DNA of 64,000 nucleotides from Spironucleus salmonicida. Lineage: Eukaryota. Positions 19,371 to 59,800 of the stretch are shown here, piece by piece (position 1 is the first letter of the stretch; the number at the start of each line of letters is the position of its first letter). A model generated the notes under the pieces. It did not search any database. It saw only the letters and a program-made list of their open reading frames with translations, and was not told the DNA's origin. The stretch lies in NCBI RefSeq assembly GCF_000497125.1, contig NC_090599.1, forward strand, positions 310,001 to 374,000, in the 5' to 3' direction. The position numbers were made by a program, and so were the translations under genes.

Positions 19371-19410
19371 TATTTTACTAATAAATTTTCTGTAATAATA
19401 TATAATAATA

Positions 19411-21713: not shown

Positions 21714-21771
21714 TTTTGATTAATATTATCTATTTAATATTATACATATACAATGTTAAAATTTATTTATA

Positions 21772-22824: not shown

Positions 22825-22999
22825 GTATTTTATCCTTAAATATTTTATTCACTACTTTGAAATAGGTATTACTACTTAATTATCTTTTATTATTATTTAT
22901 TATGTTAAGTTATATATGAATGTTAAGTTTTTAATATTTTTTGTAAACAATAAAATACAATTTACGAATTAGCACTATAATAATTAAATGAAATCTTAA

Positions 23000-23949: not shown

Positions 23950-23950
23950 G

Positions 23951-24373: not shown

Positions 24374-24430
24374 ATTAAAATTTTTAAAGTATATATAATT
24401 TATTAATATAAATATTAAATTAAATTGAAA

Positions 24431-27400: not shown

Positions 27401-30400
27401 TAGTTTTCTGGGGAATTAGGATTAGCTTCTCCTGATTATTTATTAGCAGCCGCTACTATCATGAGTAAGCCACTGTATGATGAATTATTAATAATTTCAG
27501 AAGCAGAATTAATTTTTTTATAATAGTATATTTTGTCTATTGAAGGAACTGGCAATGAAGATTCATAAAAAAAGATAATCGTTGCCACTGATATATTAGT
27601 ATAATGTACAGTTTTATTCTAATAGGTAAACCTATGTATGGATTCATAAATTTTATTAGATGGTGCTTTAATTAATGTCTAATAATATATTCTTAAAACA
27701 CTGAGAATATTGTATTATATTATAAGATAGTACATTTTAATGAATTAAAGTATTAAAATTGATTCTAATCAATAGACAAATATCCATTTAACAAAATTTT
27801 AAATGACTAATTTTATACTTATGCAATCAATCTGTATTTTATCTAACTAAATATCTAATTTATAAATTACTTAAGATTCATGGATCTATTTAGATTAAAA
27901 TTAAGCCCAAATTAATTTATTTGATTTATTACTCGGTTTGTTAACATAATATTATCAATAGTTATAAGATGATTTTATTAGATAGCTTGTGTTGTAATCA
28001 ATAAAATAATTTTTGGTATTGATAGATACTTAACCTTCATAAATTAAAAAATCGTATGATTTATAATTTATTTTTGCGATTCATACTTTCTCACCCTTTA
28101 GTGCTGATCAGTTAAACAGAATTATTAGCAGCGGATATATTAATAATATGCCTTTGCAACAGTATCTGTAGTAACTTTTATCCATGGATTAGTGTCAATT
28201 AGTTTTATAATCTTTTATTAGTTTATCAATGAATCAAATAAATAATAAAAATATTTATCAAAAGTCTTAATTTATAAATAATATACTTAATCCAAATATA
28301 TTTAATATAGAAAAAGGTCTTATTTTTGTACTATGTTTCATTAAATAGTATGAATCTCAATGTTAAGAATTAATATAGAATATAATAACATTTAATTAAA
28401 GATTTAATATCTCGCAATAAATCTTAGAAATATTTAAAGATTTGCTAATTATTTATTAGTTTTTAGTTCAAATGAAATCAGATTAAGTGTATTCTTAAGC
28501 TATGTTGTTTCTAGATGAATTATACTATGCAACATTATAAGCTATATATCACTTATTTTCAAAAGTAAATTTAGTATAAGAGTCTTTTGCTATTAAATTT
28601 TTAGATATTATTTTTAAATACATAACAATATCCGATATGTTTTGGTTAGTGGAGACTCAAATAACTTTAGAATAACCATTTTTAGAATTATCAAAGCAAT
28701 AAACCTTTGAAATAAGTAAAATATTAATATAACTTCTTCCAATTTTATGTGTATCAGATAAAAATGATAAATTTATAGTTAACTATTCTCTACACACACT
28801 TACAGGATAATATTACACTCCAGATTCAGTAATTAGAATTCTTATTTTAGTTTAATCACTTTACATAGCAAATCCTATGCGTATTATTGAAGACTTTAAC
28901 AATATGTTGTTTAAACATCCGACTTAAGCTGCTATAGTTATATTTTCATTATCATATAAAAATCTATAGGAAGTACCTATATTTTATCAATATTTATTTA
29001 AAACAAAGTTAAATTTTAATAAGCATTTCGATAAATATCTTTTTGAAGTAGGATCTTCAAATATTTCGGATGATTCTGAATCCTCTGAATCTGCAGAAGA
29101 ATCAAACACGTTCTCTAAAAAACGCCTAAAATTTGGAGAGGATAATTTATATCGCATAATTAAAAAATATATTAACGAAGAGTAAAAATATCCATCTTTA
29201 GAAAAGGATGTTAATGAATATAAGAACAATACGAATAGCTTTATTTTATCCGGGTTAAAATCTTTATTCTTAACAAATCTATTATGCAAAAAAGACATAT
29301 ATTCTTTCATAGCACATGCAATTTAAATTATACTACCAATCAATCCATACATTCCTTAAGATAAAGATGATTATATTTAAGTTTGTTTTTAAGTCCACTG
29401 TAGAGCGACAGCAGATTTTTGTGGATATCAATTTGCCCCACAAGAGTTTTTATTCTAATAATATAATCTTTCAAATGTTAAGTATTAATTAAATATAAGA
29501 TTGGCTAAAAAATATATTGAATCTATGAGAAATGCATACTTTTTCGATAACAATCATTTAGTAACGTTATAATATGTTTAGAATATTTCAGGTTCTTAGT
29601 TTACAGTTTAACCAAGAACAGATGCCTGTAAGACTATAACATTTTAATGTCTATTTCCATAAGTACTTAGGCAAGTGTTTCCAAATATGTGGCCTGAGTT
29701 TTTACTAATAAATGTAGATGTTATTTTTTAACAAATAAACGAATTTATAACTGGTGAATAAACGTAGACAAGTCTAAATTTACCACCTGCCTTATAATCA
29801 ATTGAAATATAATGGTATTTATCGAAATCTTATAAAGACTAAGAGAAAAACTGGAATAATCAAAAAATGTAGAATCTTAACTTACTAGTTGCTATTATCC
29901 ATTAATTATCTTTGTCTAGAGATGATTCATTTACCCCGACAAATGGACTTGTAAAATCAGTGTATGATATTCATTTGTTTTTAGTTTAAAACATAAATAT
30001 AATACCACAAAAAGATAAAACAATAGTAATGATGAGATCTTTAGATGCTATATAATATTTACTAACTTCTCCTAAATCAATTATATCATAATTATTTCCA
30101 TAAATAATACCATAAACAGCAATTCAGTTACCAAAAGCAGAAATTGGAATATATTGTGCAAGGCTATCTGGTCATTTATTATCATAAAATATTTGCGTCA
30201 CTCCATAAGCTGTTTTATTATATGCAGCTCTATTTATGATGATTGGTAAAGATTTACATGGGTTTTAGTTTATATTAAAACATTAAGGATATTTCTTATA
30301 TAGCATTGATAAAGATAAACTTGAAGAAATTGATAAAAAATGTCAAGTTGAAGATGGTGATTAAATTATCAAAGAAGTGTACTATGAGTTATGTAAGTTT

Positions 30401-30460
30401 TATTAGCTAGAAGTTGTCGTGGGTGAAATGTTAAAAGAAAAAATAAAAGAAATAGAATGA
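24431..30460 (+). CDS. Very large hypothetical protein, about 2009 aa
   Basis: ATG at 24431 and TGA at 30458 are in frame; coding-like where spot-checked; no family recognised. Confidence 0.65.
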
Positions 30461-30508
30461 TTAATATATTATTTAATTTTATGTATTATTTCTTTACAAA
30501 ATTTTAAA

Positions 30509-32890
<2,382 letters not shown>

Positions 32891-39512: not shown

Positions 39513-41819
39513 ATGAAACTAAAATTATAGAAACTTCTTGTAAGTTCATCTGATGATTTGGCAGAATAGTTTTAAGAACATCCTGTTCTAAACTAATTAT
39601 TTAATTCTATAATTGAAAAACATTTTACAGGTGTTGATTTTTTCTTATAAACTCCTGATGCTATTTTAATCTATTTAGATGTTCCTAAAACTGATGAACT
39701 ATTGGCTGAATTATACTTATTTAAGTCCTAAATTTTAAATTAACTACATTTAGGCTTCCTATATCCACAAGTTTATAATGCAGTAATATTAGATTTAACA
39801 CCAGAGACAATCTAAATCTGTGCACCTTTCCATTATCCAAACATATAAACCATTGAAATTTCATAATTTTAAAATTTTCATGATAATGAAAACTTGTAAA
39901 AGGGTCTAAATGTTTAAATTATATATACTTCGGAGACATAACTATATATATGCTAAGGCTGCTCACCAAATTTGTAATTTTTATCAGAATCTGCTGACTT
40001 TATTGGAAATTTTATGGATTTAAATACTGATGAACAAAGAATTCGTAATTAGTTTGATGGAATAGGGGATACTCACCATACACCTTTTTCAATTGAGGCA
40101 TTGCCGTTTGAATCATTAGGCGACCCTCCACCGCCTGGAATACCATAATGGGAATCATAACCACTATTTTTTGATTAACCTTCATGGTCAAAATAATCTT
40201 TATCTCAACATCCTTCATAGTCAACTATGCGACTTTAACCATCATTTTCAGGTATAAGTTTAACTAATTAGCCAATTGAAATTATTCCAGATCCGGCATT
40301 TACAAAGTAAAGAATTCGCGGTAGAATTGATTTTCTTATTGAATAAGTAGGTGCTATTATAGTACCTAACTTTAATAGCATTCAGTCTTATGAACCACAT
40401 TCTATAGATGAAATTAGAAATTATAGATTGGAATAAGGCACTGGCTTAGTTGTGTGTTTTAATTTAGGCTGGTTTTCTTAGATTGGTGCTGATATACCAT
40501 CTAGAGGTGATATTGTTGAGTTTGAACTAGTTCCAGGATATGGATTTTCTGAATAGCATTCTACTTTAGGGAATGCAAAATCATCAACGTACCCTTTTAT
40601 AAATAATTTTGAGGAAAATAAGAACAATAAAATTGGCCAAACTTAAAAAAGGTAATAACTTTTTGCATCAGAAATAGATGAGTTTTATAAAAATAATGAT
40701 TTTGATATTGATGAATAAATAACATGTTCAGCTGACAAAATATAAGTTATCGAAAGAGTAAGTAGACCAGAAATAGCGAAAACATTAATGATTCACGGTA
40801 ATACTTATGAAGGAATTGTTTATACTTATAGTGATTAAGAAAACTACGGTTTTATAAAAAGCTTTGGATTATTGTAAGAGGGATATTCTTATTCATAAGG
40901 GTTTGAAGTTTATTTCAAAATATAACCACAAAAATCTAGTTTTATTCCAACAAGAGGGGATTTTGTGACTTTTAAGAGTCATTGGGTTGAAGATAAAGCA
41001 TAGGCTAGAGAAATTAAGTATTTAAGTACTCGAATTTCTGATACTTTTTCAGGTATATGCTTAGCCTTCTACCCTCCATTTGTTTTATTTTCCTGCGAAA
41101 CTGATTGCTAAAATCTATCAAACAATATATTTTTTAGTAAATGGAAATCGATACCACAATAAATACGTTAATATTTAAGAATAGGATCAAAGGTTCAATT
41201 TTAAATGGATACAGATATTTCTACATAATTTAGAGCAATAATTTTAGTTCCAGAAGCTAAAAAGTAGGGAGTATTTAGTCTATCCTATTCTCCTTCTTCG
41301 TTAGAAAAGGTCAAGCCTATAAATCCTTTCACATCTGGATTATTTTTAACGTAATTATAACCGATTCCTTTTATAAATGCAAAAATTGCCATATTAAGAC
41401 ATGTTAAATCTAACCTTGTTCCTAGAACTATCACCTCAGTTAGTCCAATAATTTACGCTGGAATGGAATTACCAGATATGGATTAAATTATATTAAATAC
41501 ATAATTACTAGTAGGTTAAACTGTCTTTTTAAATATAGATTTTGCTATTTAAGCCCCTATTGGTAACAATTAATATAGAATTCAGTTTGCATGTATATCA
41601 GAAAACTACGTGTTTTTTTCTACTTTAGAATCGAGTATTTATTTGGGTATTTCAAGATAGTCGATACCAGTTTGGGTTGTAGGTTTTCCTCAATATTTAA
41701 ATGTTTTATGGGCCTGGAAATTAGATGAATAGGTTGAGTCTGGACAATTTGATTGCGATGACGCATAATTTGATGCAATTTTAATAAACGGTATATTTTC
41801 GTTTTCAAAAGCTATGTGA
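39513..41819 (+). CDS. Protein with cold-shock (OB-fold)-like domain(s), 768 aa
   Basis: YEGIVYTYSDQENYGFIK...EVYFK...RGDFVTF...AREIK; start and stop in frame. Confidence 0.6.
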
Positions 41820-41855
41820 TTTAGTTTATCAATATTTAATATAAAAGTTAATCAA

Positions 41856-42287
41856 TCATCTGGCTCTCTTTTCACGCTTACCAGTGAAGAGGGCGTGGAT
41901 ACCAATACCACCAACCTTAATGACGATGAAACGGCACCCTGGGATATCACCAACTGTACGGCCAGAACGACCGAGAGAAGTAATGATAACTTACTCATTG
42001 TTATCGATGAAGTTGATGCAACCGTCACGAGGAACGAATGCAGTGATCTTCTTACCGTTTTTAGTGAGTTGTACACGGCAAGCTTTACGAACGGCTGAGT
42101 TAGGCTGTTTAGCAGAGATACCAACTTTCTAAGTAACGATTCCAGAGGCTTAGCAGGCACCAGCAAGAGGGTTAGCCTTGAGAGAAGCTAAGAAATGAGT
42201 CTTCTTGTATCCTTTATCAGCCCAACGGTTGATTCTGGAGGTGTTGACAAGCTTACGAGCAGCATTTATACCTGATGTGCGAGCCAT
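41856..42287 (-). CDS. RPS23: 40S ribosomal protein S23 (uS12), 143 aa
   Basis: AARKL...RWADKGYKK...[21 protein letters not shown]...AFVPRDG...GDIPGCRF. Confidence 0.97.
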
Positions 42288-42518
42288 TCGAGTGGAGTGG
42301 AAACGAAAAATTAAAATTAAAAGAATTAATAATATTATATAAATACTAAAGAATTATTTAAAATAATTAATGTCTCAATGAACTAGTAAGGTTAATTTTA
42401 GTTTAATAATTAGTTTATTTACGTTATAATTATTTGAAATAATTTCTAAGGTTACGTTATTCTGTAAAATATGTTATATTTGGGGTAATATAACATATTG
42501 TACTACATTTACACAATA

Positions 42519-42908
42519 ATGATAGTATAGCAGTTCAAGTACTTCTCTTCAACATTATCGTCGATCCACGAAACATCGGCCTTGCGCCCGGAAGCGCCCC
42601 TGCTGTATCTGACCTCCACCTTTTTCGACGGTCAGCACCCCTCGTTGGCCAGGAAATCTTTCGAGGTTCTACGCGGCAACTATGCTCTCCGGTCCCAGAT
42701 GAGGGGTCTCCAGTTCGCCGTGTTCGGGGTCGGCAACAGCGCCTTCACGTGGTTCTGCAGGGCAGCGTATGTGGCACGGGACGAGTTTGTGGGGTATGGT
42801 GCGGAGGAGATACTAGCGGTGCAGAGGTTCGATCGGAAGGGAGTAGATGACTTGGAGAGGGCGCTGCGGTGGTTCTGTGAATAGATGCTGGCGGCGTTGG
42901 GATGGTGA
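42519..42908 (+). pseudogene. Flavodoxin copy with a replaced N-terminus (no FMN phosphate-binding loop)
   Basis: MIVQQFKYF is fused to the body shared with 56819-57268; lacks YASERGYT. Confidence 0.6.
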
Positions 42909-43011
42909 TCTAGGGGAGTCTAGGGTGAACGGAATGGTATAAACTAAGTGGATTATATTGGTACGATGCGAAGTTTGCCTACACAACGGCGGCGGGCGGG
43001 ATGCATTGAGT
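42546..43011. repeat. Outer inverted repeat, left arm (partner 56716-57181)
   Basis: 466 bp, about five substitutions relative to the partner. Confidence 0.95.
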
Positions 43012-43105
43012 GGAGGAAGTAGAGAATACGAAATGACAACACTTATATGCATAAGTACAGTACTTTATTATTAAATATTGGTTTAGTAGTAAATTTAACA
43101 GTAAG

Positions 43106-43288
43106 TCATTCTACTACGCTATAATTGCTATTTTAATAGTCAAACATGCTATATAAAAGTTACGGAATGGGAGTTAATAACCATGGAGTATATAGTTAAT
43201 CAAGTTGTATTGGTGTGTAACAGTAATTTTTAATGCTTATTGGTTATGGTATGGGGTCATCCAAAACTTCTTTTACGTCTAGCCTCAT
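43106..43288 (-). CDS. 60-aa microprotein, paralog of 56396-56578
   Basis: MRLDVKEVLDDPIPQPISIKNYCYTPIQLDQLYTPWLLTPIPQLLYSMFDYQNSNYSVVE*. Confidence 0.7.
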
Positions 43289-44516
43289 TGTAATTACTCG
43301 AATATATTCTAATACATTTTTAATAAGTATTATATTATTATTATTATAGTAAAGATAAAAATTTAGATACAACACATTTATTAATAAGATATACCGATAT
43401 TTCAAACTGAGTCTTAAATTTAAAAATATGTAAATACAAACATTTAGAATAATAAACAATTTTTCGCCTGTCTTTTATTATCTGGGAAATTATCAAATTA
43501 TAATAGTAGTATATATCTACATATAAATTGTAAAGTAAGTTAGTCATTATAAATAATGTTATTTTAAACTGTATAAATCCATCTGAATAAAATTTTAGAG
43601 CTATAATAATCATTGATGAATTATATAATTAATAATATAATTTATTCTACTAAAGTGCCGGAAATACGATATAAATATTAATAATTCATTTATGATCCTG
43701 TAAGAATTTTTTAAATATATTATTTTTAAAATTCATGTATAAGATATTTCTACAATATAATAATGATAGATTTGTTTTATAATTATATCAAAAAATAAGA
43801 TAAAGTGAGAGCTACCTTTATCTTATGCTAATTAAAGAATCAACACAATTCAATTTGAATTTTCCAGAGTAGTCATTAATATAAATTTGACTGAAAGTAA
43901 CAAACCTAAGACAACTTGTTATTACAGTAACATAAGTTTAGATGAACTTGTAGTTAAGTAAATATAAGTAATAAATAATATAACCTTACGATAATTATAG
44001 TTAGCATGAGGTTTATATTGTAAGGATAATAGTGATGATGGAAGGTAAATTAAAACTTAATGTATATTCAAATTTCCAATAGTAAAAGGAAGTTATAAAT
44101 AAAACTTTACTCTAATAGTCTAAGTTGTTTTATTAATTATATCATCAAAAAGATTCATTGATCAAATAATAAAATAGTAATGGATAACGAATATTTACTT
44201 TTTTTGATAAACAGTGAAACAAAAATTATTGATCACATTTCATTTTATTAACTGAGTTAATTTAATATAATATATCAAGGTTAAAAGTAAATCTAAATAT
44301 AATTATAATAAAACTATTTTAATATTTAGATGTTTAGTTTGATTGTTATATATGATATACATTGATTTATGATTATCTTAAAAGAATAACAATAATAAAT
44401 ATAATAACTTCATTAGAAACTCAATAAAATTGTATTATTCATCCCTGCTGCCAGTATCCCGAAAAACTAAGACGGCACACTGTGTATAATATATGTTATA
44501 ATACCTCTAAACAGTA

Positions 44517-45155
44517 ATGATTAGCAATGAGCCTACACAGCTCCCCTAGATCCCTGCTACGATGTCAGGTAGGCCGCGTGCAAAGGACAAGAAGAGTCCA
44601 GAGGACTCATTCCCAGCTGAGATGTCACAGCGGGTGCCTTTCACCCTTCCCAAGACGGTATCGCCCACGCGCTACAGTCTCCGCGAGCCCGAAGTAAACC
44701 GCTCAATACCCATGTCCACGATGTCACGACGCAGCACCTTCGTGGACTCAGCCATCGCGAGGGGGTAGAAGCTACCTGGGCCCTCGTCCTACCACACTGT
44801 CAGTTTCGCCGTGCAGAGGCCGCGGGTCAATCGCACAGTCGTCACACCATAGACCCGTGATCTGTAGATCAGTATGCAGAGCACCACGAGGACCGAGTTT
44901 AGTGGCAGGTAGGCAGTGGAGGGCAGCTTCAAGTTCCTAGCCAGGACAGTCGGCGCAGCGGACTTCCGCAGCGTAGCAGAACGGTTTGTACCACCAGCAA
45001 TTGGCACTGCCGAGTTCCCAGGAGACGTAGTGCAGGGCTTCAAGAACTCGCGGTCCCGGAGCGCCCAACTGACCCTGAATAGCACGGAGCGGTTCCAAGC
45101 TCCCAGGGAAGAGCCGACGCGACGGTAGAAAGGGCTGCGCTGGTGGGACTACTGA
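44517..45155 (+). CDS. Hypothetical basic S/T/R/P-rich protein with a PGPSSY motif, 212 aa (copy 1)
   Basis: Code-6 ORF MISNEPTQLPQIPATMSGRPR...KGLRWWDY*. Confidence 0.65.
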
Positions 45156-45168
45156 GTGAGGAAGGACA

Positions 45169-45738
45169 TCACTGGGCCTACCGCCCCACTAGGAAGGGCA
45201 TCAGCTTCGCGGCGGCGAGCCCACGGTGGGAGATCCGGTTCTTCTCCTCCATGGTCATGGCTGCGTAGCGAAGGCCGCTTGCGTCGGCTCTGAAGACTGT
45301 ATCGTAGCTGAGGGCACCAAAACTGGAGACTCCCTCCGGGGGCACCATCTCCCCGTGGCACTAGCCAGAGAAGAGCAGCGGTTCGGCGCCGGGGCCTTCG
45401 CAGAAGGCATAGATGCACTGTGCGTAGGCCCGCTTGTCCTCGAAAGCCGAGAGGATCCGCACGAGGCCACCGGCACCCATGCTGGTGAGGAAGTCTTTCA
45501 CGTACGGCCCTGGGAGCTTGTAGTCGAAGGCTGCAAAGCACAACGACACGTCATCCGTTACAACCGGCCCCCCGTAGAGCGCGGCGGCTGCACGGCATTT
45601 AGCGGCGGCGACCTGCTCCGGCGAACCCTACAGCTCGGGAACGTCCAGTGAATGGCTGATCCAATCTACGCCCCCCGCCATGGATGCGAACTCGGCAATC
45701 TTGTGTGCGTTCCCGGTTACAAGACAGACTGGTTTCAT
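45169..45738 (-). CDS. ITPA: Inosine triphosphate pyrophosphatase (Ham1 family), copy 1
   Basis: VTGNAHK, PEL-Q(TAG)-G, VVTDDVSL, LPGPYVK, EEKNRISHR. Confidence 0.93.
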
Positions 45739-45763
45739 TTGGAGCGGGATACGAACCACACAA

Positions 45764-46291
45764 ATGTTCGGTGAGACTCCGGGCGAGAGGCTGGAGCGGC
45801 GGGTCTGCCGGAAATACCGCGGCATGTGTCTATTGGGGGTTCGGGTATCACAGGGGAGCTGGCGGTGCGGTGCACTGGCCATCATGTTACAGGTGCCAGT
45901 CGTATTGGCGTGGCAGTGTGGTTGGGGGCCTGGGCTGGCGCTGTTGGTCTCCTACGCCAGGGTGCTCTCCATGGTCCCCGCGCACGGCACAGCAGCAGAG
46001 GAGGCGGAATACGCTACTGCAGTGCAGCTGATAGCACTTGGGAAGAGCGCACGGAGGATGCACGCCCGCTGGAACAGCCTATCTGTGGAGTTACGGCTGG
46101 CTGTGCTGGGGGCGTGCGGTGTGGCGTCCGAGCTGCTAGGAGGATGGGCGGTATTGGCAGCGGTTGGTATAACGGATTTGTTGTGGCTGGTACCCTGTGT
46201 GGGAGAGAAGGTGCGTGCGGTCGTGCGGAAGGCCGCGGATGCCCTAGCTCCTCTAGTCGAGCGAGCAGGCTATGTGTTACGGAACGAGTGA
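45764..46291 (+). CDS. Hypothetical membrane protein, about 175 aa (copy 1)
   Basis: Two hydrophobic stretches; ends GAGTGA; start uncertain (alternatives 45824 and 45884). Confidence 0.55.
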   Translation: MFGETPGERLERRVCRKYRGMCLLGVRVSQGSWRCGALAIMLQVPVVLAWQCGWGPGLALLVSYARVLSMVPAHGTAAEEAEYATAVQLIALGKSARRMHARWNSLSVELRLAVLGACGVASELLGGWAVLAAVGITDLLWLVPCVGEKVRAVVRKAADALAPLVERAGYVLRNE

Positions 46292-46313
46292 TTAACGACA
46301 GTGCCGGAGTACT

Positions 46314-46528
46314 TCACTGGGAGGTCCTGTGTGCCAAGAAGGAGACACAGTGACCGAGGAGAACTGCTACGAGGAAGCCGTAGGCGACCTTCAGGGCGGA
46401 TTCGGGCATGATGCCGGTTTGCTTGGTACTCTTTCTAGTGTGTTAGTAGAAGTTACGGTTCAGAGTGGCACGGGTGGGACACAGGGATCCCGCCGCCTGC
46501 CTCCTCAAAATAAAACATACTTAGCCAT
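46314..46528 (-). CDS. Sec61beta-like tail-anchored protein, 42 aa, two exons (46521-46528 and 46314-46434), copy 1
   Basis: Mirror of 53896-54110. Confidence 0.7.
46435..46520 (-). other. Predicted 86-nt spliceosomal intron, copy 1
   Basis: GTATGTT...ACTAACACACTAG on the minus strand. Confidence 0.8.
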
Positions 46529-46657
46529 TACAATTAGAGGAATGATCTTTTATTCTAATATATGTTAATATAATACTTTTTTATATATTTTTGATTTCTA
46601 CTCGTCACTTAATTATTATTAATTATATAATAATCGCATATCGAGTAAAATTTCCAA

Positions 46658-47536
46658 TCACTACGTTTCCACCAATACTTATATTCCGAATTTAAGCATA
46701 AAATGTGCTCTTTCAAACGTTTACCCGGTCTTCCGGTTCTTTTCAACCTTAATCCACTCAAGCTCTTCATATACTATCATTCCTACATCCGCTATCAGTT
46801 TTTTTAGTAATAAAATATTAAATCCAATCAAAATAGTTGAATCTCCAGCACGTTAACAAACCACTCCATATTCAAATTGCTGGCTCTCTCTTCTAACAAT
46901 CCGATAATCGTTTTCGGAGTAATCTACAATCACACAAATACCTCCATTTTTGACAGCTGCTTTCGCCATTAAAATCACATTTTTAACCTCTAAAATCGAA
47001 CTCAAAACGAATATAATAAGCACAAAATCAAATTATCCCAGGTTAAACTTAGTTGCATCATCAACACATAAAGAGAGACGTTTTTCATCGTAAAACCGGC
47101 GTTCTTTAGCGTTAGAAATAGCTTGTTTTGAAAAATCAAAAGCTGTAATTTTAACTGCACCATTTTTCTCAAGTAGTGGGAAACATGTTGCACCCGTACC
47201 ACAACCAACATCTAGTACAGAAAAAACAATAGGCTGCTCAAGTGCAAAAGGAACAGAAAGTTATTTTAAATTTGAATCGTAAAGATTGATTTAAGAGCTC
47301 CATGTTGGGTTATGAGGGCACAACTTATATTTTAAATCAGTTTTATGTTCTTTTACCTCCTAATTAAATTTTATCTTAAGTTTGCAAATTGGGCAGATAA
47401 AAAATTTTGTTTTAAGGAATGAAACTTCCTATGTTGGTGGCAGTGGAAATAATTCGGGAATTAATTACCAGAGCCAGTGCCGATCACGATATGGATGATG
47501 TTATACTGAAAAAATTGCATTCCAGTTTTCCTCCAT
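46658..47536 (-). CDS. SAM-dependent methyltransferase, METTL2/METTL6 (tRNA m3C)-like, paralog B, 292 aa
   Basis: NWNAIF...YRDRHWL...PEL, VLDVGCGTG, FVLI..LSSI. Confidence 0.8.
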
Positions 47537-47562
47537 TTAAGGAGTGGAAAACAGAAAAATGA

Positions 47563-48399
47563 TCACTTCGCAGATATTCCTACTTTGACTATAAAATGTG
47601 ATCTTACAAATGTGTATCCTGTTTTCCGATTCATCTCCTATCGAGTCCATACAAATTTTTCATAAACAACAAATCCAATTTCGACCAAATACTATTCTAA
47701 AAGTTCCAAATCAAACCCTAGAAGCAAAGTGCCATCTCCCTCACGCACACACTAAATTCCAAAATCTGTCATAGTTCCATTTCTTTTAATCACTTTTGTG
47801 TCTAAATTGCTGTAATCCGTAATGAATAGGACACCATTTATCTTAAGTTGTGTTTTCATGTTTCGGAGGCACCCCTTCACATCTGGAATTGCACTCAAAA
47901 CGAATATTAATACGGCATAGTCGAATTACCCAATTTAACATGTCACTGCATCGTCTACGAGTCCCAAAATGCGTTCCTCGTCATAAAATTCTCGTTTTTT
48001 AAGCCAGTTTATTGCCGTCTCAGAAAAATCAAAGGCAGTAACTTTCACTGCTCCATTTTTCTCTAAAAGTGGAATGGATGTTGAACCTGTTCCACAACCA
48101 ACGTCTAGTAGCGATATTTAAGGTTCAATTTTACTAGCAAAGGGCACTTGTGCAGCACGAAGCTGGTCTTTTTATTGGGTCAAATCAATTTAAGACTGAT
48201 ATAAAGGCATGTGGATGCAAGATGCTCTGATTTCGTATAATTTAGCACACTGCGCGCAGGCGAATGTTTTACAGAGAATTTCCTCAGAGGAGCGGTGTGC
48301 AGGGACAGGGAACAATTCTGGAATCAATATCCAGAGCCAATGGCGGTCCTAATAAGGGTGTTTCTATGTTTTAAAAAATCGCTCCCATGGTTTGTTCAT
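47563..48399 (-). CDS. SAM-dependent methyltransferase, METTL2/METTL6-like, paralog A, 278 aa
   Basis: PWERFF...YQDRHWL...PEL, LLDVGCGTGSTSIPLL, DFSETAI, IFVLSAIP. Confidence 0.82.
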
Positions 48400-48421
48400 T
48401 TTAGGAGTGAAAAGAATAAAA

Positions 48422-50374
48422 TCATTCGAAGCCAAAAAGATCGTCTAAAATATTTTTCGCTGCAGCTTGAGGTTATGACACTGGGTACGCATCCTAGCTT
48501 TCGTCGACTGTTAAACCCTACAAATTGATATCAAGAGACTCCTCATCGTCTTCTGACTTTTACTTCTTCTCAATTGTGTTCTTGACAGCAACCCTAGAAA
48601 TAGAGCTGTACATCCCTAAATTGGGGACAAAGATGTTAAATGCATCAACGGGGTCTACAACTCTGGTGGCCTTGTTACCGTCAAAACCGAGCTCGCCACC
48701 AAAAATAATACTTCTAGCGTCAGCCAAATCATCGAGGCTCAGCAATCTCCAATAGAAGAACGCACGCTCTCTTACATCAGGAGAAAAAATTTTTGCCTCC
48801 TTATCCTTTCCAGTTGCAGCGGCTAGGAGACTCTATGCTAACGCCTAAGACTACTCGGTGGAGTTATGCAAAAATACTTTCACCGCGGCGCTCAGGAGTG
48901 CTAACTAAACACTCTCCTGTTCCTCCGAAAACTTATCACTGAAGTTTTCAATAACATCTGCGGCATTTTCAATCGATTAAGACTGAGCACCAATGACGTC
49001 AAACAGAGCGCATCTTGCGCTGGGATCATCCACAGCAGTAACAAGCTGCAAAATTTACAAAATTGCCGCATCAAAATACCCAGGATAGCAGCGTACAACG
49101 TCACGAATCGATACTATAGCCTCCTGTGCCACGACAGTATACGAAGTAGCTTTTTTGGAAGTTTTCTCTAAATATAGTGCTCCATCTCCATCGGCTTATT
49201 CATTCGAAACCTTTGAGACTAAATCTACCAAAATCTGAACACAATACCCGCTTGCATTGATGAGCTTAATCGCCAGCTTACCGATCAAGTTTACACACTT
49301 TTTGACGAATTTTTGCTCTACATCAGATACACAGTAATCTTTAAGCTCTTCAAGCAAAACTGATACATTTTCGTCATTTGCAACCTGTAGCAGTACCTCT
49401 AGTTTCTCCAATTTTATGTACAACGGATCTAAATAGCTTGGGAGTAATGGACGAATTTCAAATGATATCCATCCCGGGAAGGCTGAAATAACAGATGCTA
49501 CTGAGCGCAAAGTTAGATATTGAATTTATGGGGATTCTGTAGACAAAAGTGTAATAAATGATGGCACAGTTCTGGTAATGTATTAATATCTTTATTCATC
49601 TGGAAGGTATTTTACAATGTTCAGTATTGATTTAATAGAGTTAATAACGACTGATGGATTCGCATGTTAAAGTTTGGTAGAAATTTTCTCAACCGCAGCA
49701 AGGGCTTAGTATGTATCCTTAGGAACAAATTTTGACAGACTTTCTAAAAGATATACCAAACCCCATTCGTTAGACTCTGCAGTAGCAGTCAAAATGGTTT
49801 AGAAAATGTTATCGTCTTATTAAAATAATTACTCTTGATGTAACTACATGAGAGATGCCACTGCATTTGAAATAACTGCCTAATTTGAGTCTTACAATAA
49901 AATAATAAGCTCAGGGAGTAAAATCTTTAGTTGGTCTGGACTTGTGACACAAACTTTTGCACATGCTATAGCTGCAGTTTTTCTTACATATGGATCAGCA
50001 TCATGCATGGCTTTCACTAAAGGAGAAATCAGGTATTCAATAATTTAAACTAAAGGTATTGAACTCATAGTACGAATAGCTAATGCCCTAATAATAGAAG
50101 AATCATTATTATCTGCATCTTTGAGAAATGCGTTAACTGCCAATAAACATGACTTAGGCTATTTTGTAGAAAAATTCATAAGATAAAGATATACTAACTT
50201 CTTTAGTTCTAAATCTTTAGAGAATATTGTCTTAACTACATCTGTGAAAATCCAAGACACATCTCGTTATGATGTCATTGCTACAATAATTTCTTGCATA
50301 GTTATTTTTTTCATAAATTCTGAGCCCGTACGGAGTGATTCCTGCCACTCCTAGTTTTCCTATTTTCCTGACAT
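48422..50374 (-). CDS. Beta-adaptin (AP-1/AP-2 beta) trunk without an appendage, 650 aa
   Basis: DLELKKLVYLYLMN, IIRALAIRTM, DADPYVRKTAA, LYIKLEKLEVL, SPDVRERAFFYWRLL. Confidence 0.9.
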
Positions 50375-50433
50375 TGATTTGAAGTGGGTATATTCTTATT
50401 ATATACCAATAAAATTTACATACTTTGTACATA

Positions 50434-51828
50434 ATGATACGGCGAAATTAGCAAAGCAAACTTTACTCATCTAGAAATTCTGTTAGGCCGGTTCAATTTA
50501 CTTTAGAGTAGTAATATGAAATTAGGAATAAAATATTAAGCTAAATTTGTACAAAATGTGGCTAGTTTGTTGTAAAACTAATCGATGATTTTAATCATTA
50601 GATTTATATTCTAAAATCTAATAACACTAAAGATTTAATTGATCCTGTTGAATTATAGAATGGTAAATTTTAAGAACTTATATCGCAAAATTTTTAGCTT
50701 AATTAAACAATTTCATTTTTGGAAAATAAAATAACCAAGATAGATGAGAATAAATGCAATTAGACAAAAGAAATACTATTTACTAAATAATAAAATAAAG
50801 TTTTATCCAATAGACTGAATAAATAAATGTTAGAGTTGAGAGATTCTAATAAGGCAACTGTTTTAAAATATGAAGAAAAATTAAGTTCAGCATATTAATA
50901 AATAGATAATTAAAATCAAACTATAAGACATATGACTCAAGAAATAGAAAAAGTAAGTAAAAGATATAACAATATTCTTAATGGTACAAACGATGATAAA
51001 GCAAGTGTCACTTATCTTCAACAGTTGATAAAAGATACTAATTAATAGCTTCAGTAAAATTTCAAGGAAATCTACCAGTTAAAGATTTAGCTTCAGAACT
51101 ATAGTATAATGGAATAAGAACATTAAAAACTAAGTAATGAGCATAAATATATGTAAGGTTAAATTTAAAACCTTAAACATGATTTACTTGTTAGTTAAAA
51201 TAATTATTAAAGAATGGTTTAAATTAATGATAAATTTAAAGATAGTTTAGATCTATAAAGTAGCCAAATAATAACATAATTAAACTAAATTGATCTATAC
51301 AGTGAGTAGATAGAGACATATGAAAAAGAAGTAGAGTCTTTAAGCAACAGTCAAACCACACACTTTAAAATAGATATAACAAAGGTAGCAAGCAAAGATT
51401 TTGAATATATTACATCGCCAAAGCAACCTATAGTTGGGAATATTACTGATGCTGAAAAATTATTTCTATAAGAGTATTCTGATATATTCATATATAAGTT
51501 TGACCGTATGGTTTTTTATAACTAGAATAAAAAAGTACTATTAGATGAATACTATTCAATTCGCGACTAAATTTTAAACGTTAATATTCTTAAATAATGC
51601 GGAATACCAATAAATATAGCAGTTAGAGCAGCAAATGAAGAGAAATATTGTTTAAATGCTGCTTTATAATATTTATCTGCCAATAATACCATATATACGT
51701 TAGTTCATACTTAGTTAGAATAAAATGTATTTGGTTAAGTTGTTAAAATGATATTGGCTTAATATAAGGTTGGAATTTCAAGAAATTAGTTCTGGGTTAA
51801 GCTGGATACTAATATTTAATTTATATGA
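50434..51828 (+). CDS. Coiled-coil protein, 464 aa
   Basis: Q/E/K-rich code-6 ORF; start and stop in frame. Confidence 0.65.
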
Positions 51829-52047
51829 TATTTAGGTATTTTTTTAATTAGGCCTAGAAAGTATTCAAGTATTGTCTTAATAAATATATTACAGTACTAA
51901 ATTTGTTTTAAACTATAAATATATAAATGTATGATTTTTATTTTACTTTAATATTATATTAATTTTCTTAAGCCTTTATTGCTTGAAATTTATAAAATTT
52001 TATAAAAATAAATATGTAGTATTATATAAAATATTATATAAAATTAA

Positions 52048-52482
52048 ATGAACTTTATCCAAACACGCCTTGTAAAACCACTCTCTCCCACATAGAAGTA
52101 CCTTAAATCAATAACATCAGATAATAATGACCTAATATCTTAGTAAATTTCATAAGATTCAACGTTTCTTAATAATCTTATTGCCCGCCTCGCAGACTCA
52201 TTTAATTTCCTTCAGAAGCGTCAAAATTTACTCATTAAAAAAGTAAGAAATTAAACACTAGAAATTTAAAAGAATTAAACTAGAATTAATGAACTTTTGG
52301 ATTATTGTAAAGTGCTTGAAAGAGAAATGCATGCGAAGGCTCTAGTTTGTGTAAAAAGGGTCAACTCAGCGATATGGCATTTAGAATCTCTACATGCATT
52401 TATAGATGAAGTCAAGTTAAAGCGTGCAATTTTACGTTTCAAAAAAGTCCTTGAAAGTAGGGCCAAAGATGGTGATAAATGA
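52048..52482 (+). CDS. Hypothetical coiled-coil protein, 144 aa
   Basis: Code-6 extension of track ORF 52297-52482. Confidence 0.6.
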
Positions 52483-53081
52483 TAATTTGCTAGGAATTGA
52501 TTTTATAATATTTCGTAATATGCGTAATATTATATTACTTTAAAAACATGTAATAAAAGAAGTGATTCAAAAAAGTATAAATCTGTTATTATATAATAAA
52601 TGATGAAAGTAAGTATTAATAATGATAAATGCTTTTACTCGCATCGTGACAACAGGTTTATGCATAGTGGCAGGATATATTTGTTTGCAAACTTTATATG
52701 TTAAATATAAACTGAAAAGTATTCATTTTTAATTTGACTCATTGTCTTCTTAAACACCATAAAAATGTATTGTATTTGTTTCAGATCCATAAGCCTGTTA
52801 TTGGTGCTTGAAGTAAGCTGAACTTTGGAATGAGTAAACATAAAAATTTATAGATAATAAAGGCTATACCTTATTAAAACTAAATGTTTCGGATGGTATC
52901 CTACTAGCGCGAAAGTTAAAATTGAATCATTTTTCTGGATTCCCTGTTACTTTATTTTTTGATATAAATAGTGTGGAAGCTCAGAGGATTTATGGTGTAT
53001 TTAATATGAAAAAGCTAATCAAAACAGTAAATTAAATAAAGTGATAAAGTAATATTATATAATATAATAAATCAATCTAAA

Positions 53082-53774
53082 ATGTCCGAAAAGGACTTCT
53101 AAGAATTAATAGAAGCAATCACTTCACATTCGGCAAATGGAGTTGAAATATAATCTAGGATCCATGTATATTCATCTAGAACAGCTGATAATAATTATTT
53201 GCCCAATACATAAATTTTAAACTAGCAAAATAGGCCATCATCATTAGTGTCGTTCTCACCAACAGAGGTTATGGCACCTGCATTCTCTAATAATACAATT
53301 GCTGCTGCTTCAAAGACGTTTAATATACTTGTATAAGCAATATCATAAACATACTATGAAATTGACGATATTCTAATAACACCTTAAATGTTATTTTCAG
53401 TAGAGTATTCATCTGCAATTGAAGCTACTTCAGCCACATTAAGAGCTGCTTTAAACAACTCCTAAGAAATTATTTCTTATTTTAAACTTATTGTTGCATC
53501 TATTTGTCCTAAACATCATTCACATGTATTTACCATAGACTTTTAAAATTCATACAATTTTATTGAGACAGATGGAGGAATATGGAGTCAAAATTATCTA
53601 TTCTGGAATTATTTAACCAAAAAAGTTTTAGTTTTCACACTTGTAGCATTAGCTGAGGAAAGCTCAAGTTCTGAAGAAGACAGTGATAATCATAATGAAG
53701 ATTGCACAAAAAATCTACCCGATAACCAAATTGATAATGTTTTTGGTGATGCTAAATTTTTTACATTCGAGTGA
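53082..53774 (+). CDS. MAF1: Divergent Maf1 (RNA polymerase III repressor), 230 aa
   Basis: SRIHVYSSR (cf. GRIESYSCK), DGGIWSQNYLFWNYLTKKVLVF (cf. [21 protein letters not shown]), acidic tail. Confidence 0.72.
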
Positions 53775-53895
53775 GAGTAAGTATTAAAATTCTCTTAAAA
53801 TATTAACGTGGTTGATTACGTTTTAATTAAAATAATATATTAAAGAATTCATAATATATTATGTATTATCTTACAATTCAATTCCTCTAATTGTA

Positions 53896-54110
53896 ATGGC
53901 TAAGTATGTTTTATTTTGAGGAGGCAGGCGGCGGGATCCCTGTGTCCCACCCGTGCCACTCTGAACCGTAACTTCTACTAACACACTAGAAAGAGTACCA
54001 AGCAAACCGGCATCATGCCCGAATCCGCCCTGAAGGTCGCCTACGGCTTCCTCGTAGCAGTTCTCCTCGGTCACTGTGTCTCCTTCTTGGCACACAGGAC
54101 CTCCCAGTGA
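53896..54110 (+). CDS. Sec61beta-like tail-anchored protein, 42 aa, two exons (53896-53903 and 53990-54110), copy 2
   Basis: Spliced product MAKKSTKQTGIMPESALKVAYGFLVAVLLGHCVSFLAHRTSQ*; the P..L....F...V..H spacing resembles the Sec61beta TM; ends CAGTGA. Confidence 0.7.
53904..53989 (+). other. Predicted 86-nt spliceosomal intron, copy 2
   Basis: 5' GTATGTT and fused branch point/3' site ACTAACACACTAG; removal puts the upstream ATG in frame. Confidence 0.8.
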
Positions 54111-54132
54111 AGTACTCCGGCACTGTCGTTAA

Positions 54133-54660
54133 TCACTCGTTCCGTAACACATAGCCTGCTCGCTCGACTAGAGGAGCTAGGGCATCCGCGGCCTTCCGCA
54201 CGACCGCACGCACCTTCTCTCCCACACAGGGTACCAGCCACAACAAATCCGTTATACCAACCGCTGCCAATACCGCCCATCCTCCTAGCAGCTCGGACGC
54301 CACACCGCACGCCCCCAGCACAGCCAGCCGTAACTCCACAGATAGGCTGTTCCAGCGGGCGTGCATCCTCCGTGCGCTCTTCCCAAGTGCTATCAGCTGC
54401 ACTGCAGTAGCGTATTCCGCCTCCTCTGCTGCTGTGCCGTGCGCGGGGACCATGGAGAGCACCCTGGCGTAGGAGACCAACAGCGCCAGCCCAGGCCCCC
54501 AACCACACTGCCACGCCAATACGACTGGCACCTGTAACATGATGGCCAGTGCACCGCACCGCCAGCTCCCCTGTGATACCCGAACCCCCAATAGACACAT
54601 GCCGCGGTATTTCCGGCAGACCCGCCGCTCCAGCCTCTCGCCCGGAGTCTCACCGAACAT
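54133..54660 (-). CDS. Hypothetical membrane protein (copy 2)
   Basis: Mirror of 45764-46291. Confidence 0.55.
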   Translation of the reverse strand: MFGETPGERLERRVCRKYRGMCLLGVRVSQGSWRCGALAIMLQVPVVLAWQCGWGPGLALLVSYARVLSMVPAHGTAAEEAEYATAVQLIALGKSARRMHARWNSLSVELRLAVLGACGVASELLGGWAVLAAVGITDLLWLVPCVGEKVRAVVRKAADALAPLVERAGYVLRNE

Positions 54661-54685
54661 TTGTGTGGTTCGTATCCCGCTCCAA

Positions 54686-55255
54686 ATGAAACCAGTCTGT
54701 CTTGTAACCGGGAACGCACACAAGATTGCCGAGTTCGCATCCATGGCGGGGGGCGTAGATTGGATCAGCCATTCACTGGACGTTCCCGAGCTGTAGGGTT
54801 CGCCGGAGCAGGTCGCCGCCGCTAAATGCCGTGCAGCCGCCGCGCTCTACGGGGGGCCGGTTGTAACGGATGACGTGTCGTTGTGCTTTGCAGCCTTCGA
54901 CTACAAGCTCCCAGGGCCGTACGTGAAAGACTTCCTCACCAGCATGGGTGCCGGTGGCCTCGTGCGGATCCTCTCGGCTTTCGAGGACAAGCGGGCCTAC
55001 GCACAGTGCATCTATGCCTTCTGCGAAGGCCCCGGCGCCGAACCGCTGCTCTTCTCTGGCTAGTGCCACGGGGAGATGGTGCCCCCGGAGGGAGTCTCCA
55101 GTTTTGGTGCCCTCAGCTACGATACAGTCTTCAGAGCCGACGCAAGCGGCCTTCGCTACGCAGCCATGACCATGGAGGAGAAGAACCGGATCTCCCACCG
55201 TGGGCTCGCCGCCGCGAAGCTGATGCCCTTCCTAGTGGGGCGGTAGGCCCAGTGA
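54686..55255 (+). CDS. ITPA: Inosine triphosphate pyrophosphatase (Ham1 family), copy 2, 189 aa
   Basis: Same motifs as copy 1; ends CAGTGA. Confidence 0.93.
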
Positions 55256-55268
55256 TGTCCTTCCTCAC

Positions 55269-55907
55269 TCAGTAGTCCCACCAGCGCAGCCCTTTCTACC
55301 GTCGCGTCGGCTCTTCCCTGGGAGCTTGGAACCGCTCCGTGCTATTCAGGGTCAGTTGGGCGCTCCGGGACCGCGAGTTCTTGAAGCCCTGCACTACGTC
55401 TCCTGGGAACTCGGCAGTGCCAATTGCTGGTGGTACAAACCGTTCTGCTACGCTGCGGAAGTCCGCTGCGCCGACTGTCCTGGCTAGGAACTTGAAGCTG
55501 CCCTCCACTGCCTACCTGCCACTAAACTCGGTCCTCGTGGTGCTCTGCATACTGATCTACAGATCACGGGTCTATGGTGTGACGACTGTGCGATTGACCC
55601 GCGGCCTCTGCACGGCGAAACTGACAGTGTGGTAGGACGAGGGCCCAGGTAGCTTCTACCCCCTCGCGATGGCTGAGTCCACGAAGGTGCTGCGTCGTGA
55701 CATCGTGGACATGGGTATTGAGCGGTTTACTTCGGGCTCGCGGAGACTGTAGCGCGTGGGCGATACCGTCTTGGGAAGGGTGAAAGGCACCCGCTGTGAC
55801 ATCTCAGCTGGGAATGAGTCCTCTGGACTCTTCTTGTCCTTTGCACGCGGCCTACCTGACATCGTAGCAGGGATCTAGGGGAGCTGTGTAGGCTCATTGC
55901 TAATCAT
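55269..55907 (-). CDS. Hypothetical basic protein with a PGPSSY motif (copy 2)
   Basis: Mirror of 44517-45155. Confidence 0.65.
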
Positions 55908-56395
55908 TACTGTTTAGAGGTATTATAACATATATTATACACAGTGTGCCGTCTTAGTTTTTCGGGATACTGGCAGCAGAGATAAAATGGAGTCTAAAGT
56001 TGGAAGCTAGATTGAATTTCTATTATGTATTTATAAGATTGGTTCATTGTATGACTGTCCTCATTACTTATTCTTGGTTTTATCAATATGTTAATTATTT
56101 ATATTATAATGTTAAAAATTTAGTTTAAGTTTCATGATTTGAATATTACAAATTTTATTTGTAACGCAATTAATGTTTTATTGAAAGAATTAACTATATT
56201 AGATATTCACCAAGGAATTTTTTAATAGAATTTGTTTATTAGGGGAATTATGAGGTAATTACGAATATTACAAAAATATAACCTTATTAATAAATAAAGT
56301 AAAATGAAAATATAAATTAAACAAATTCTAGTGATATTATTTTATTAATATTTATTAATAATACAGTATGTTAGAGTAATCTAGAATAATTTAGA

Positions 56396-56578
56396 ATGAA
56401 ACTTGATGTTAAAGAAATATCTACTCGGTCAATGTAGGGTTCAATTAACATTGCTTCCGAATATTACACACCAACATAGATAGACGAGCTCTTAACACCT
56501 TGGTTGCTAACGCCTGCGCCATAGATAATATATAACCCTCTTGATTAGTCCTTTTGTAGCTACAGTACCATCGAATGA
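56396..56578 (+). CDS. 60-aa microprotein, paralog of 43106-43288
   Basis: MKLDVKEISTRSMQGSINIASEYYTPTQIDELLTPWLLTPAPQIIYNPLDQSFCSYSTIE*. Confidence 0.7.
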
Positions 56579-56715
56579 CGAATATATAATATTATAGATA
56601 CGTTAACTACAATATATATATATATAATTTTTTAATCAGTTTATACATCTAACAGTTTACTAGCCTTTAGCTGCCCTACATTTTCTAAAAATACCGACTT
56701 AACGAACTATCCTCT

Positions 56716-57181
56716 ACTCAATGCATCCCACCCGCCGCCGTTGTGTAGGCAAACTTCGCATCGTACCAATATAATCCACTTAGTTTATACCATTCCGTTC
56801 ACCCTAGACTCCCCTAGATCACCATCCTAACGCCGCCAGCACCTATTCACAGAACCACCGCAGCGCCCTCTCCAAGTCATCTACTCCCTTCCGATCGAAC
56901 CTCTGCACCGCTAGTATCTCCTCCGCACCATACCCCACAAACTCGTCCCGTGCCATATCCGCTGCCCTGCAGAACCACGTGAAGGCGCTGTTGCCGACCC
57001 CGAACACGGCGAACTGGAGACCCCTCATCTGGGACCGGAGAGCATAGTTGCCGCGTAGAACCTCGAAAGATTTCCTGGCCAACGAGGGGTGCTGACCGTC
57101 GAAAAAGGTGGAGGTCAGATACAGCAGGGGCGCTTCCGGGCGCAAGGCCGATGTTTCGTGGATCGACGATAATGTTGAAGA
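56716..57181. repeat. Outer inverted repeat, right arm
   Basis: Reverse complement of 42546-43011. Confidence 0.95.
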
Positions 57182-57268
57182 AATATTACTAGACTTTAGC
57201 ACTGATTATAATAATACTGCTGCCGCAGCTGTATACCCTCGTTCTGATGCATACACAATTTATATCAT
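56819..57268 (-). CDS. Flavodoxin, 149 aa
   Basis: MIQIVYASERGYTAAAA, TSTFFDGQHP, FAVFGVGNSAFTWFCRAA. Confidence 0.88.
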
Positions 57269-59212: not shown

Positions 59213-59800
59213 TCACATCTTGGCGTACCAGTCGAGGCCTCTAGGCTCAAATGGCTTGTCGGCCATGCACACGGGGCACTTCATGGGGGCCTTGGCGCCG
59301 ACGTGGACGTAGCCGCAGATCATGCAGATCCAGGTCGTGTCGTCCTTCTGGGCGAAGACGCTCTCGGTCTCCACGAGCTTGACCAGGTTGGCGAACCGCT
59401 GGGCGTGGTCGGCCTCGATCTTGGCGAGGTTGCGGAACAGGGCTGCGATGGCGGGGAAGCCCTCGTCGGCGGCCACCTTGGAGAAGGCGGGGTAGGCGTG
59501 CTCGGCCTCCTCGGTCTCGCCGGCGACGGCCAGCTTCAGGTTCTCGAGCGTGGTGCCGAGCTTGCCGGCGGGGTAGCAGGCGTTGATCTCGAGGTCGCCG
59601 CCCGCCAGGAAGGAGAAGAGGCGGAAGGCGTGCTGCTTCTCCATCTCGGCGTTGTTGGCGAAGATGTGCTGGATGTAGGGGAAGCCCTCGTCCTTGGCCT
59701 TGTTGGCGAACTGCATGTAGCGGTTGAACGCCTGCGACTCGCCCGCGAAGGCCTTGAGCACGTTCTTTTCGGTTTCGGAACCCTTGATTGACTTAACCAT
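59213..59800 (-). CDS. rbr: Rubrerythrin, 195 aa
   Basis: KAFAGESQA, ExxH di-iron motifs (EKQHA, EADHA), C-terminal rubredoxin WICMICGYVH...KCPVC. Confidence 0.96.
   Translation of the reverse strand: MVKSIKGSETEKNVLKAFAGESQAFNRYMQFANKAKDEGFPYIQHIFANNAEMEKQHAFRLFSFLAGGDLEINACYPAGKLGTTLENLKLAVAGETEEAEHAYPAFSKVAADEGFPAIAALFRNLAKIEADHAQRFANLVKLVETESVFAQKDDTTWICMICGYVHVGAKAPMKCPVCMADKPFEPRGLDWYAKM

Follow-up and report, generated by a model that had tools for sequence, protein, structure and literature searches.

In the available text of the study of duplication in Spironucleus salmonicida (PMC9509377), duplicated regions of at least 2 kb and at least 95% identity account for 19.2% of the genome, mostly as single-gene stretches, and their GC content is given as 44.7%, against 30.7% elsewhere. 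The sharp GC shifts in this genome had already been addressed in a 2007 survey, the accessible part of which found neither mutation nor selection an easy explanation for them (PMC1805757). The annotation contains about 4,900 hypothetical proteins, as stated in the available part of the genome description (PMC3916229). Diplomonad genomes in general contain thousands of unnamed ORFs, and among the very short ones genes can usually not be told from noise. This problem is worse where only one codon acts as a stop, since open frames of 60 codons are then cheap.

The locus analyzed here lies in a 64-kb stretch of S. salmonicida DNA, called the window below, and consists of two micro-ORFs of 60 codons, copy A and copy B. 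Both sit between two duplicated blocks of 2146 and 472 nt with a GC of 0.57-0.58, which are comparable to the duplicated regions described in the available text of PMC9509377. The micro-ORF pair itself differs from such blocks, with a nucleotide identity of 55%, saturated synonymous sites and a GC of 0.32-0.38. Whatever preserves the identity of the neighbouring blocks has not acted on the pair.

Two other groups are close to this locus. Like lineage-restricted microproteins and orphan genes, the micro-ORFs are short and intronless, had no homologue detected outside the lineage and were recognised through conservation between copies. What is particular here is that the evidence for purifying selection comes from a comparison of internal paralogues. 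The other known class comprises peptides with short linear motifs and substrates of proline-directed ([ST]-P) kinases. The encoded peptides share with [ST]-P kinase substrates three conserved Thr-Pro pairs in a context predicted to be disordered. However, Thr-Pro can arise by chance, and the resemblance is one of possible mode of action, not of family membership.

Genetic code and gene content of the window

The use of code 6, in which TAA and TAG encode Gln, was found valid for the window because long single ORFs in this code gave strong domain matches. The adaptin ORF, which contains 44 internal TAA or TAG codons, matched Adaptin_N at 3.3e-87 (Pfam), and further single code-6 ORFs carried MCM (2.7e-84), DSPc, ArfGap, ThiF, LRR, Pecanex_C and Maf1 domains. 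Two methyltransferases, Ham1 and rubrerythrin were also among the code-6 ORFs of the window. Under the standard code, only three ORFs of at least 150 aa were present. The Gln codons of twelve window genes (7,576 codons) comprised 363 TAA, 145 TAG, 107 CAA and 66 CAG.

Contigs from four runs of one study, guessed to be RNA, were placed on positions 40000-53800 (13.8 kb). Loose ends consisting of T-runs beside adapters suggest poly(A) RNA. Such ends were located 12-16 nt past the stop codons of three genes, those for S23, methyltransferase and adaptin. No splice joints were seen in the contigs across 40000-53800. Start contexts were counted in 12 genes, leaving out two HAM1 rows, adaptin and the truncated flavodoxin copy. 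A C-rich CACTCC-like motif was found 5-15 nt upstream of four of the 12 start codons, and AA directly preceded the ATG in 10 of the 12 genes.

In S. salmonicida, according to the available part of the genome description, TGA is the only stop codon and overlaps the polyadenylation signal, with poly(A) some 14 bp beyond it. The same text places a C-rich motif around 10 bp ahead of the start codon and counts four introns and eight flavodoxins in the genome (PMC3916229). The window genes resemble this description in their TGA-only stop, in poly(A) close to the stop and in the C-rich motif before starts. Moreover, the 449-aa HAM1 ORF belonged to a 90% cluster together with a protein named HAM1 protein from Spironucleus salmonicida. 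The first-pass annotation had assumed code 6 and a diplomonad source, and this was borne out by the domain-bearing code-6 ORFs, the 3' ends and the HAM1 cluster mate.

Two other sources of the DNA were considered. An organelle genome was rejected, as no tRNA, rRNA or Rfam match was found in the window. A ciliate nucleus was also rejected, given that no introns were seen, that the 3' UTRs were very short and that the HAM1 cluster mate is named Spironucleus salmonicida.

Some genes of the window had features of their own. The ribosomal protein S23/uS12 gene at 41856-42287(-) (Ribosom_S12_S23, 1.4e-38) showed a contig depth of 17,000-31,000, compared with 2-300 in its neighbours, and had a C-rich motif upstream of its start and poly(A) 14-16 nt past its stop. 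The rubrerythrin gene at 59213-59800(-) was open under the standard code too and had a GC3 of 0.94, while the GC3 of the housekeeping genes checked in the window was 0.26-0.41. The tandem methyltransferase paralogues MT1 and MT2, at 46658-47536(-) and 47563-48399(-), were 26 nt apart, and the adaptin gene ended 22 nt ahead of the start of the second methyltransferase. The gene-dense parts were compact, with gaps of 22-26 nt, as opposed to the spacers of 0.7-1.4 kb that bear the micro-ORFs.

The micro-ORF pair and evidence for selection

Copies A and B are each 183 nt long and encode 60-residue products under table 6 (Table 1). Each is the maximal ORF of its own frame, starting from the first ATG past the preceding TGA. 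The stop-type Gln codons are all TAA in copy A (4/4) and all TAG in copy B (4/4), and under table 11 they are read as four internal stops per copy. GC3 was 0.28 in copy A and 0.38 in copy B. The sequence GAATGA terminates both copies, and likewise the adaptin gene and a 2032-aa ORF. Two ORFs begin inside these GAATGA stops, at 42549-43109(-) and 56575-56982(+). Both are antisense to the flavodoxin gene, but the frame in which they run through the shared arm is not the same. The first of them, the only one of the two that was checked, was not found in the public protein sets.

Table 1. Positions of the micro-ORFs and of the surrounding features in the window
Feature	Position	Strand	Remarks
Micro-ORF copy A	43106..43288	-	60 codons from ATG to TGA; Gln encoded four times by TAA
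Micro-ORF copy B	56396..56578	+	60 codons from ATG to TGA; Gln encoded four times by TAG
Antisense ORF opposite A, 206 aa	42966-43586	+	open code-6 frame
Antisense ORF opposite B, 282 aa	56083-56931	-	open code-6 frame
AT-rich spacer A	43018..44437		1420 nt, GC 0.21, contains ORF A
AT-rich spacer B	55987..56709		723 nt, GC 0.25, contains ORF B
Outer repeat arm, copy A	42546..43017		472 nt, GC 0.57; differs from B at 6 positions
Outer repeat arm, copy B	56710..57181		inside full-length flavodoxin gene
Inner repeat arm, copy A	44438..46583		2146 nt, GC 0.58
Inner repeat arm, copy B	53841..55986		HAM1 and hypothetical genes
Flavodoxin-like ORF, A side, 5'-truncated	42471-42908	+	Flavodoxin_1 positions 35-141; convergent with ORF A
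Flavodoxin gene, B side, full length	56819-57268	-	Flavodoxin_1 1-141 of 143, E 1.8e-11; convergent with ORF B
212/220-aa hypothetical gene, A side	44493-45155	+	divergent from ORF A
212/220-aa hypothetical gene, B side	55269-55931	-	inner arm B
HAM1/ITPase gene, A side, 449 aa	45169-46518	-	Ham1p_like 2.1e-37
HAM1 gene, B side	53906-55255	+	inner arm B

The two peptides aligned without gaps, with 28/60 residues identical and 40/60 positives (BLASTP E 5e-19), whereas the nucleotide sequences were identical at 101 of 183 positions (55%). Two ATG-to-TGA ORFs of 183 nt with a gapless alignment and 28 identities were what the first-pass annotation had described, and translation and BLASTP reproduced them. 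Each peptide was further compared with every 60-residue window in the six code-6 frames of the whole 64-kb window using ungapped BLOSUM62 scores. The score of A against B was 151, and the next best was 33 or 21, depending on the query peptide, over a background with a mean of about -59 and an sd of 17. The A/B match is therefore far beyond chance. No third copy or motif match was found within the 64-kb window.

Identity was distributed unevenly over the codon positions, with 38, 42 and 21 of 61 at positions 1, 2 and 3, respectively. Given 101 identities in total, 21 or fewer at the third position had a hypergeometric P of 6e-5 (Fisher, 7.8e-5). The NG86 method under code 6 gave 35.1 synonymous and 46.9 non-synonymous differences, with a pS of 0.907, which is saturated, and a pN of 0.332. 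In the other two forward frames, pS was 0.45-0.55 and pN 0.44-0.47. Gln is kept at column 28 with the codons CAA (A) and TAG (B), and at column 43 with TAA (A) and TAG (B), changes that are silent only under code 6. Since substitutions occurred mainly at third codon positions, these results indicate selection on the encoded peptide.

The conserved island coincided with the ORF from ATG to TGA. Ungapped identity was 12-19/30 within the ORF, compared with 5-13/30 in the 300 nt on each side, and the ORF GC of 0.32 (A) and 0.38 (B) was at the level of coding sequences, compared with 0.16-0.25 in the flanks. Start, stop and the length of 60 codons were common to both copies. Judged from sequence comparison, the pair probably represents old, diverged paralogues of a protein-coding gene that is under selection on the strands given in Table 1. 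The selection signal comes from a two-sequence comparison and is assignable to the pair jointly, to neither copy alone. The first-pass annotation had stated that many of the differences were synonymous and had proposed purifying selection on a small protein. The NG86 counts agreed with the former, and the latter was supported by the third-position P value, the kept start and stop and the Gln column with CAA and TAG. The pairwise dN/dS-type check suggested there gave a pN well below pS.

Some features were counted against a coding reading. The codon usage of both copies was atypical for window genes: the log-odds were -3.4 bits for copy A and +0.5 for copy B, while in 118 real 61-codon chunks the 1st, 5th and 25th percentiles were -3.4, -0.5 and 4.0 and the median 6.6. 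CA or GA precedes the ATG of the two copies, in place of the AA found in 10 of 12 genes. The C-rich motif was not found upstream of the start of copy A or B.

A non-coding conserved element (for instance a small RNA, a promoter or a terminator) could also leave two similar stretches in which the open frames are incidental, as could partial gene conversion that left a patch behind. Both ORFs are indeed flanked by homogenised blocks with presumably active conversion, and in AT-rich DNA read with code 6, frames of 60 codons without TGA arise easily. The nucleotide-level similarity taken alone was not significant either, with a local score of 22 compared with 18 +/- 2.9 for shuffles (maximum 31). 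However, three-base periodicity of substitutions at P 6e-5 is unexpected for a regulatory element or a conversion patch, and a conserved start and stop stand 60 codons apart. In addition, both copies folded less stably than their shuffles (z +1.40 and +1.95), and Rfam gave no match for either even at E 1. We consider an origin of this kind very improbable.

The 3' end or an exon of a longer gene was rejected as a source of the pair, as the upstream frame was unconserved and the ORFs start at the first ATG after a stop. A remnant of a longer gene was also disfavoured because no longer protein matched the A+B profile, and an exon because introns are very rare in the lineage, as given in the available part of PMC3916229.

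The codon-position periodicity is shared, by construction, with the antisense frame that has the same wobble position. This frame also showed 28/60 identities, was open over 206 and 282 aa opposite copies A and B, and had slightly higher codon log-odds (-1.3 and +3.5, compared with -3.4 and +0.5 in the forward frame), although this advantage is small compared with the variation among real genes and the log-odds do not separate the two strands here. If the antisense frame were the selected one, the 60-codon ORFs would be its mirror image, which appears very unlikely. The BLOSUM score of the antisense frame was 102 against 151 for the forward frame (ratio 0.68), and its pN and pS were 0.375 and 0.726, against 0.332 and 0.907. 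Conservation ended at the forward ATG and TGA and did not extend along the longer antisense ORFs, which had no common start codon, no Pfam match and no entry in the public protein sets. Long TGA-free frames are, moreover, frequent in this DNA, with 83 ORFs of at least 200 aa in the 64 kb.

The strand comparison was calibrated with one real paralogue pair of like divergence in the same window, MT1/MT2, of which 120 of 251 aligned residues were identical. In each of the 15 sixty-codon windows of this pair the sense frame scored better than the wobble-sharing antisense frame, and the total BLOSUM scores were 653 (sense) and 399 (antisense), a ratio of 0.61. The calibration, the BLOSUM gap, the limits of conservation at ATG and TGA and the lack of a common antisense start thus favour the strand listed for the micro-ORFs.

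The inverted duplication around the pair

Copies A and B occupy matching positions in one inverted duplication, which had gone unnoticed in the first-pass annotation. In the direction of the micro-ORF, each half begins with HAM1/ITPase, followed by the 212/220-aa hypothetical gene in convergent orientation, by the AT-rich spacer that bears the micro-ORF, and by a convergent flavodoxin. The neighbouring gene blocks, which form the repeat arms, are 98.7-100% identical. The core of the inner arm, 44445-46543 and 53881-55979, consists of 2,099 nt without a single difference and carries the HAM1/ITPase and hypothetical genes. All 20 differences of the inner arm are confined to its terminal 40 nt or so. 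Contigs of the presumed-RNA runs covered almost exactly the identical inner block (44442-46517).

The outer arm covers most of the 5'-truncated flavodoxin-like ORF on the A side. At the repeat boundary 42546, profile positions 1-34 of this flavodoxin are replaced by unrelated AT-rich sequence. Since the outer boundary cuts the flavodoxin and the A side is without these positions, the A half is a partial copy. Both the A-side and the B-side flavodoxin copies were present in the public protein sets. The presumed-RNA contigs on the outer arm carried B-side letters and B-side flanks.

Outside the ORFs, the spacers aligned no better than shuffles, either upstream (1149/409 nt) or downstream (88/131 nt). 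The observed score was reached by 16% of 300 shuffles upstream and by 45% downstream. The earlier statement that the flanks do not align thus held for the immediate flanks, but beyond them lie the inverted-repeat arms of 472 and 2146 nt.

The partial nature of the A half raises the question of whether copy A is a relic. The gene may formerly have been functional, with only copy B, or neither copy, still being so. The flavodoxin without profile positions 1-34 on the A side, the outer-arm contigs matching B-side letters and flanks, the presence of copy B and the absence of copy A in public protein sets, and the poorer codon score of copy A would agree with this. However, despite saturated synonymous sites, copy A still begins with ATG, ends with TGA, has 60 codons and contains the entire conserved core, and a dead copy of such age would be expected to lose its frame or its periodicity. 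Loss of function in copy A or in both copies is therefore considered unlikely, and two copies of a selected gene remain the preferred reading.

Other observations concern the ends of the repeats. The outer-arm contigs extended 69-87 nt past the arm towards ORF B as far as an (AT)n run, where they ended some 45 nt short of the stop codon of ORF B; this result is uninformative on ORF B itself. The contigs of the B-side flavodoxin reached about 196 nt beyond its stop codon (56623-56818), compared with 12-16 nt in three other genes. A long 3' UTR could explain this overrun, as could a break in the assembly or a transcript that runs towards the flavodoxin from the side of the micro-ORF. A third inverted repeat pair was located at 4971-5283 and 23637-23949 (313 nt, 10 differences, GC 0.46), covering the 3' end of the LRR gene and a second ORF. 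All three repeat pairs in the window were GC islands.

We propose that one intronless 60-codon gene was duplicated as part of an old inverted duplication. The GC-rich gene blocks would have been kept alike by gene conversion. The AT-rich spacers, broken up by insertions and deletions, would have drifted apart, leaving only the ORF recognisable. A recent duplication alone is excluded because the synonymous sites are saturated and the spacers unalignable, whereas the gene blocks are 98.7-100% identical. An old duplication with gene conversion fits the genome-wide statements on duplication and GC in the available text of PMC9509377 and PMC1805757.

The encoded peptide and its significance

The peptides are acidic and rich in Pro and Tyr, with seven acidic and three basic residues and pI values of 4.23 (A) and 4.34 (B). 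The maximum Kyte-Doolittle hydropathy over 19 residues was 0.56 and 0.49 and the GRAVY -0.19 and -0.18, respectively. By Kyte-Doolittle hydropathy, neither a membrane-spanning stretch nor a hydrophobic segment of signal-peptide length was found. AlphaFold2 with the two-sequence alignment gave a mean pLDDT of 53.8, a pTM of 0.19 and a single helix at residues 26-32. The product is thus predicted to be largely disordered, which is a weak statement given the low confidence of the model.

Constraint was uneven along the peptide. Identity was 6/7 in residues 1-7, 2/16 in residues 8-23, 16/23 in residues 24-46 and 4/14 in residues 47-60. The 23-residue core reads Y-T-P-x-Q-[LI]-D-[QE]-L-x-T-P-W-L-L-T-P-x-P-Q-[LI]-[LI]-Y, and the ends are further constrained as M[RK]LDVKE at the N-terminus and YSxxE at the C-terminus. 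The [ST]-P sites T25-P26, T34-P35 and T39-P40 do not vary between the two copies, as a sequence pattern only. A short-linear-motif function is preferred because a disordered peptide with a short conserved core shows such an uneven pattern of constraint. The soluble peptide might act as a short-linear-motif ligand docking onto a folded partner protein, and the three conserved Thr-Pro pairs might, speculatively, be regulatory phosphorylation sites. Although it is the preferred mechanism, docking or a phospho-switch of this kind is proposed with low confidence. Proline-directed phosphorylation or docking at the repeated TP sites had also been suggested in the first-pass annotation.

A profile of both copies searched against 1.84 billion protein representatives (E 0.001) found only copy B itself, and the length of the peptide was no bar to this. 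The exact sequence of copy B was present in UniRef, EukProt and MetaClust as an unnamed protein, and copy A was absent from the same public protein collection. The neighbouring flavodoxin, HAM1 and 212/220-aa proteins were also present in public sets, with NCBI among their sources, unlike copy B. No Pfam family and no match among PDB sequences was found for either copy up to E 10. In the ESM Atlas, the best feature score for copy B was 0.87, under the lead level of 0.9, and its own model had a pLDDT of 0.45. A metagenome scan with the A/B alignment gave 291 pattern matches, none of which was confirmed, and a degenerate DNA pattern for YTP...TPWLLTP had no match in metagenome contigs. The protein and metagenome collections searched are not rich in diplomonads and ORFs of 60 aa are rarely called, so absence from them is weak evidence.

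No description of the peptide in print was found by a search of the full text of articles. None of the presumed-RNA contigs lay over 43018-44441, which includes copy A; an mRNA of about 200 nt could be lost in library preparation, so this result is neutral. The first-pass annotation had called the pair an unrecognised family. No named family or relative was indeed found, but copy B is already an unnamed entry in three databases. The family so far amounts to these two copies; no further member appeared at E 0.001 among the 1.84 billion representatives.

The finding is sound but modest, namely a two-copy pair in one genome, with one copy already an unnamed database entry. The comparison of internal paralogues nevertheless gives direct evidence of selection on a peptide of 60 residues, the Pro/Trp core of which is sharply conserved. 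If the peptide is not expressed, the pair would instead be a caution on inferring selection from only two sequences. The fish parasite Spironucleus is transfectable, which makes the micro-ORF a concrete candidate to be tagged there and used to identify its partners.

The residue identity of the micro-ORF pair (47%) is close to that of MT1/MT2 (48%). As a tentative interpretation, the micro-ORF may be a Spironucleus-specific, possibly de novo-born microprotein gene, the two copies of which would have been under purifying selection for about as long as the MT1/MT2 duplication has existed, in spacers that escape homogenisation. The saturated divergence of the micro-ORFs, set against identical GC-rich flanks, bears on the maintenance of duplicated genes and on GC heterogeneity. 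If the interpretation is true, the locus would serve as an internal clock, and identical GC-rich duplicated genes would be old and continually converted with a GC bias, not recent. GC-biased conversion would then be a possible mechanism behind the sharp GC islands found puzzling in the 2007 survey, as far as its accessible part describes them (PMC1805757).
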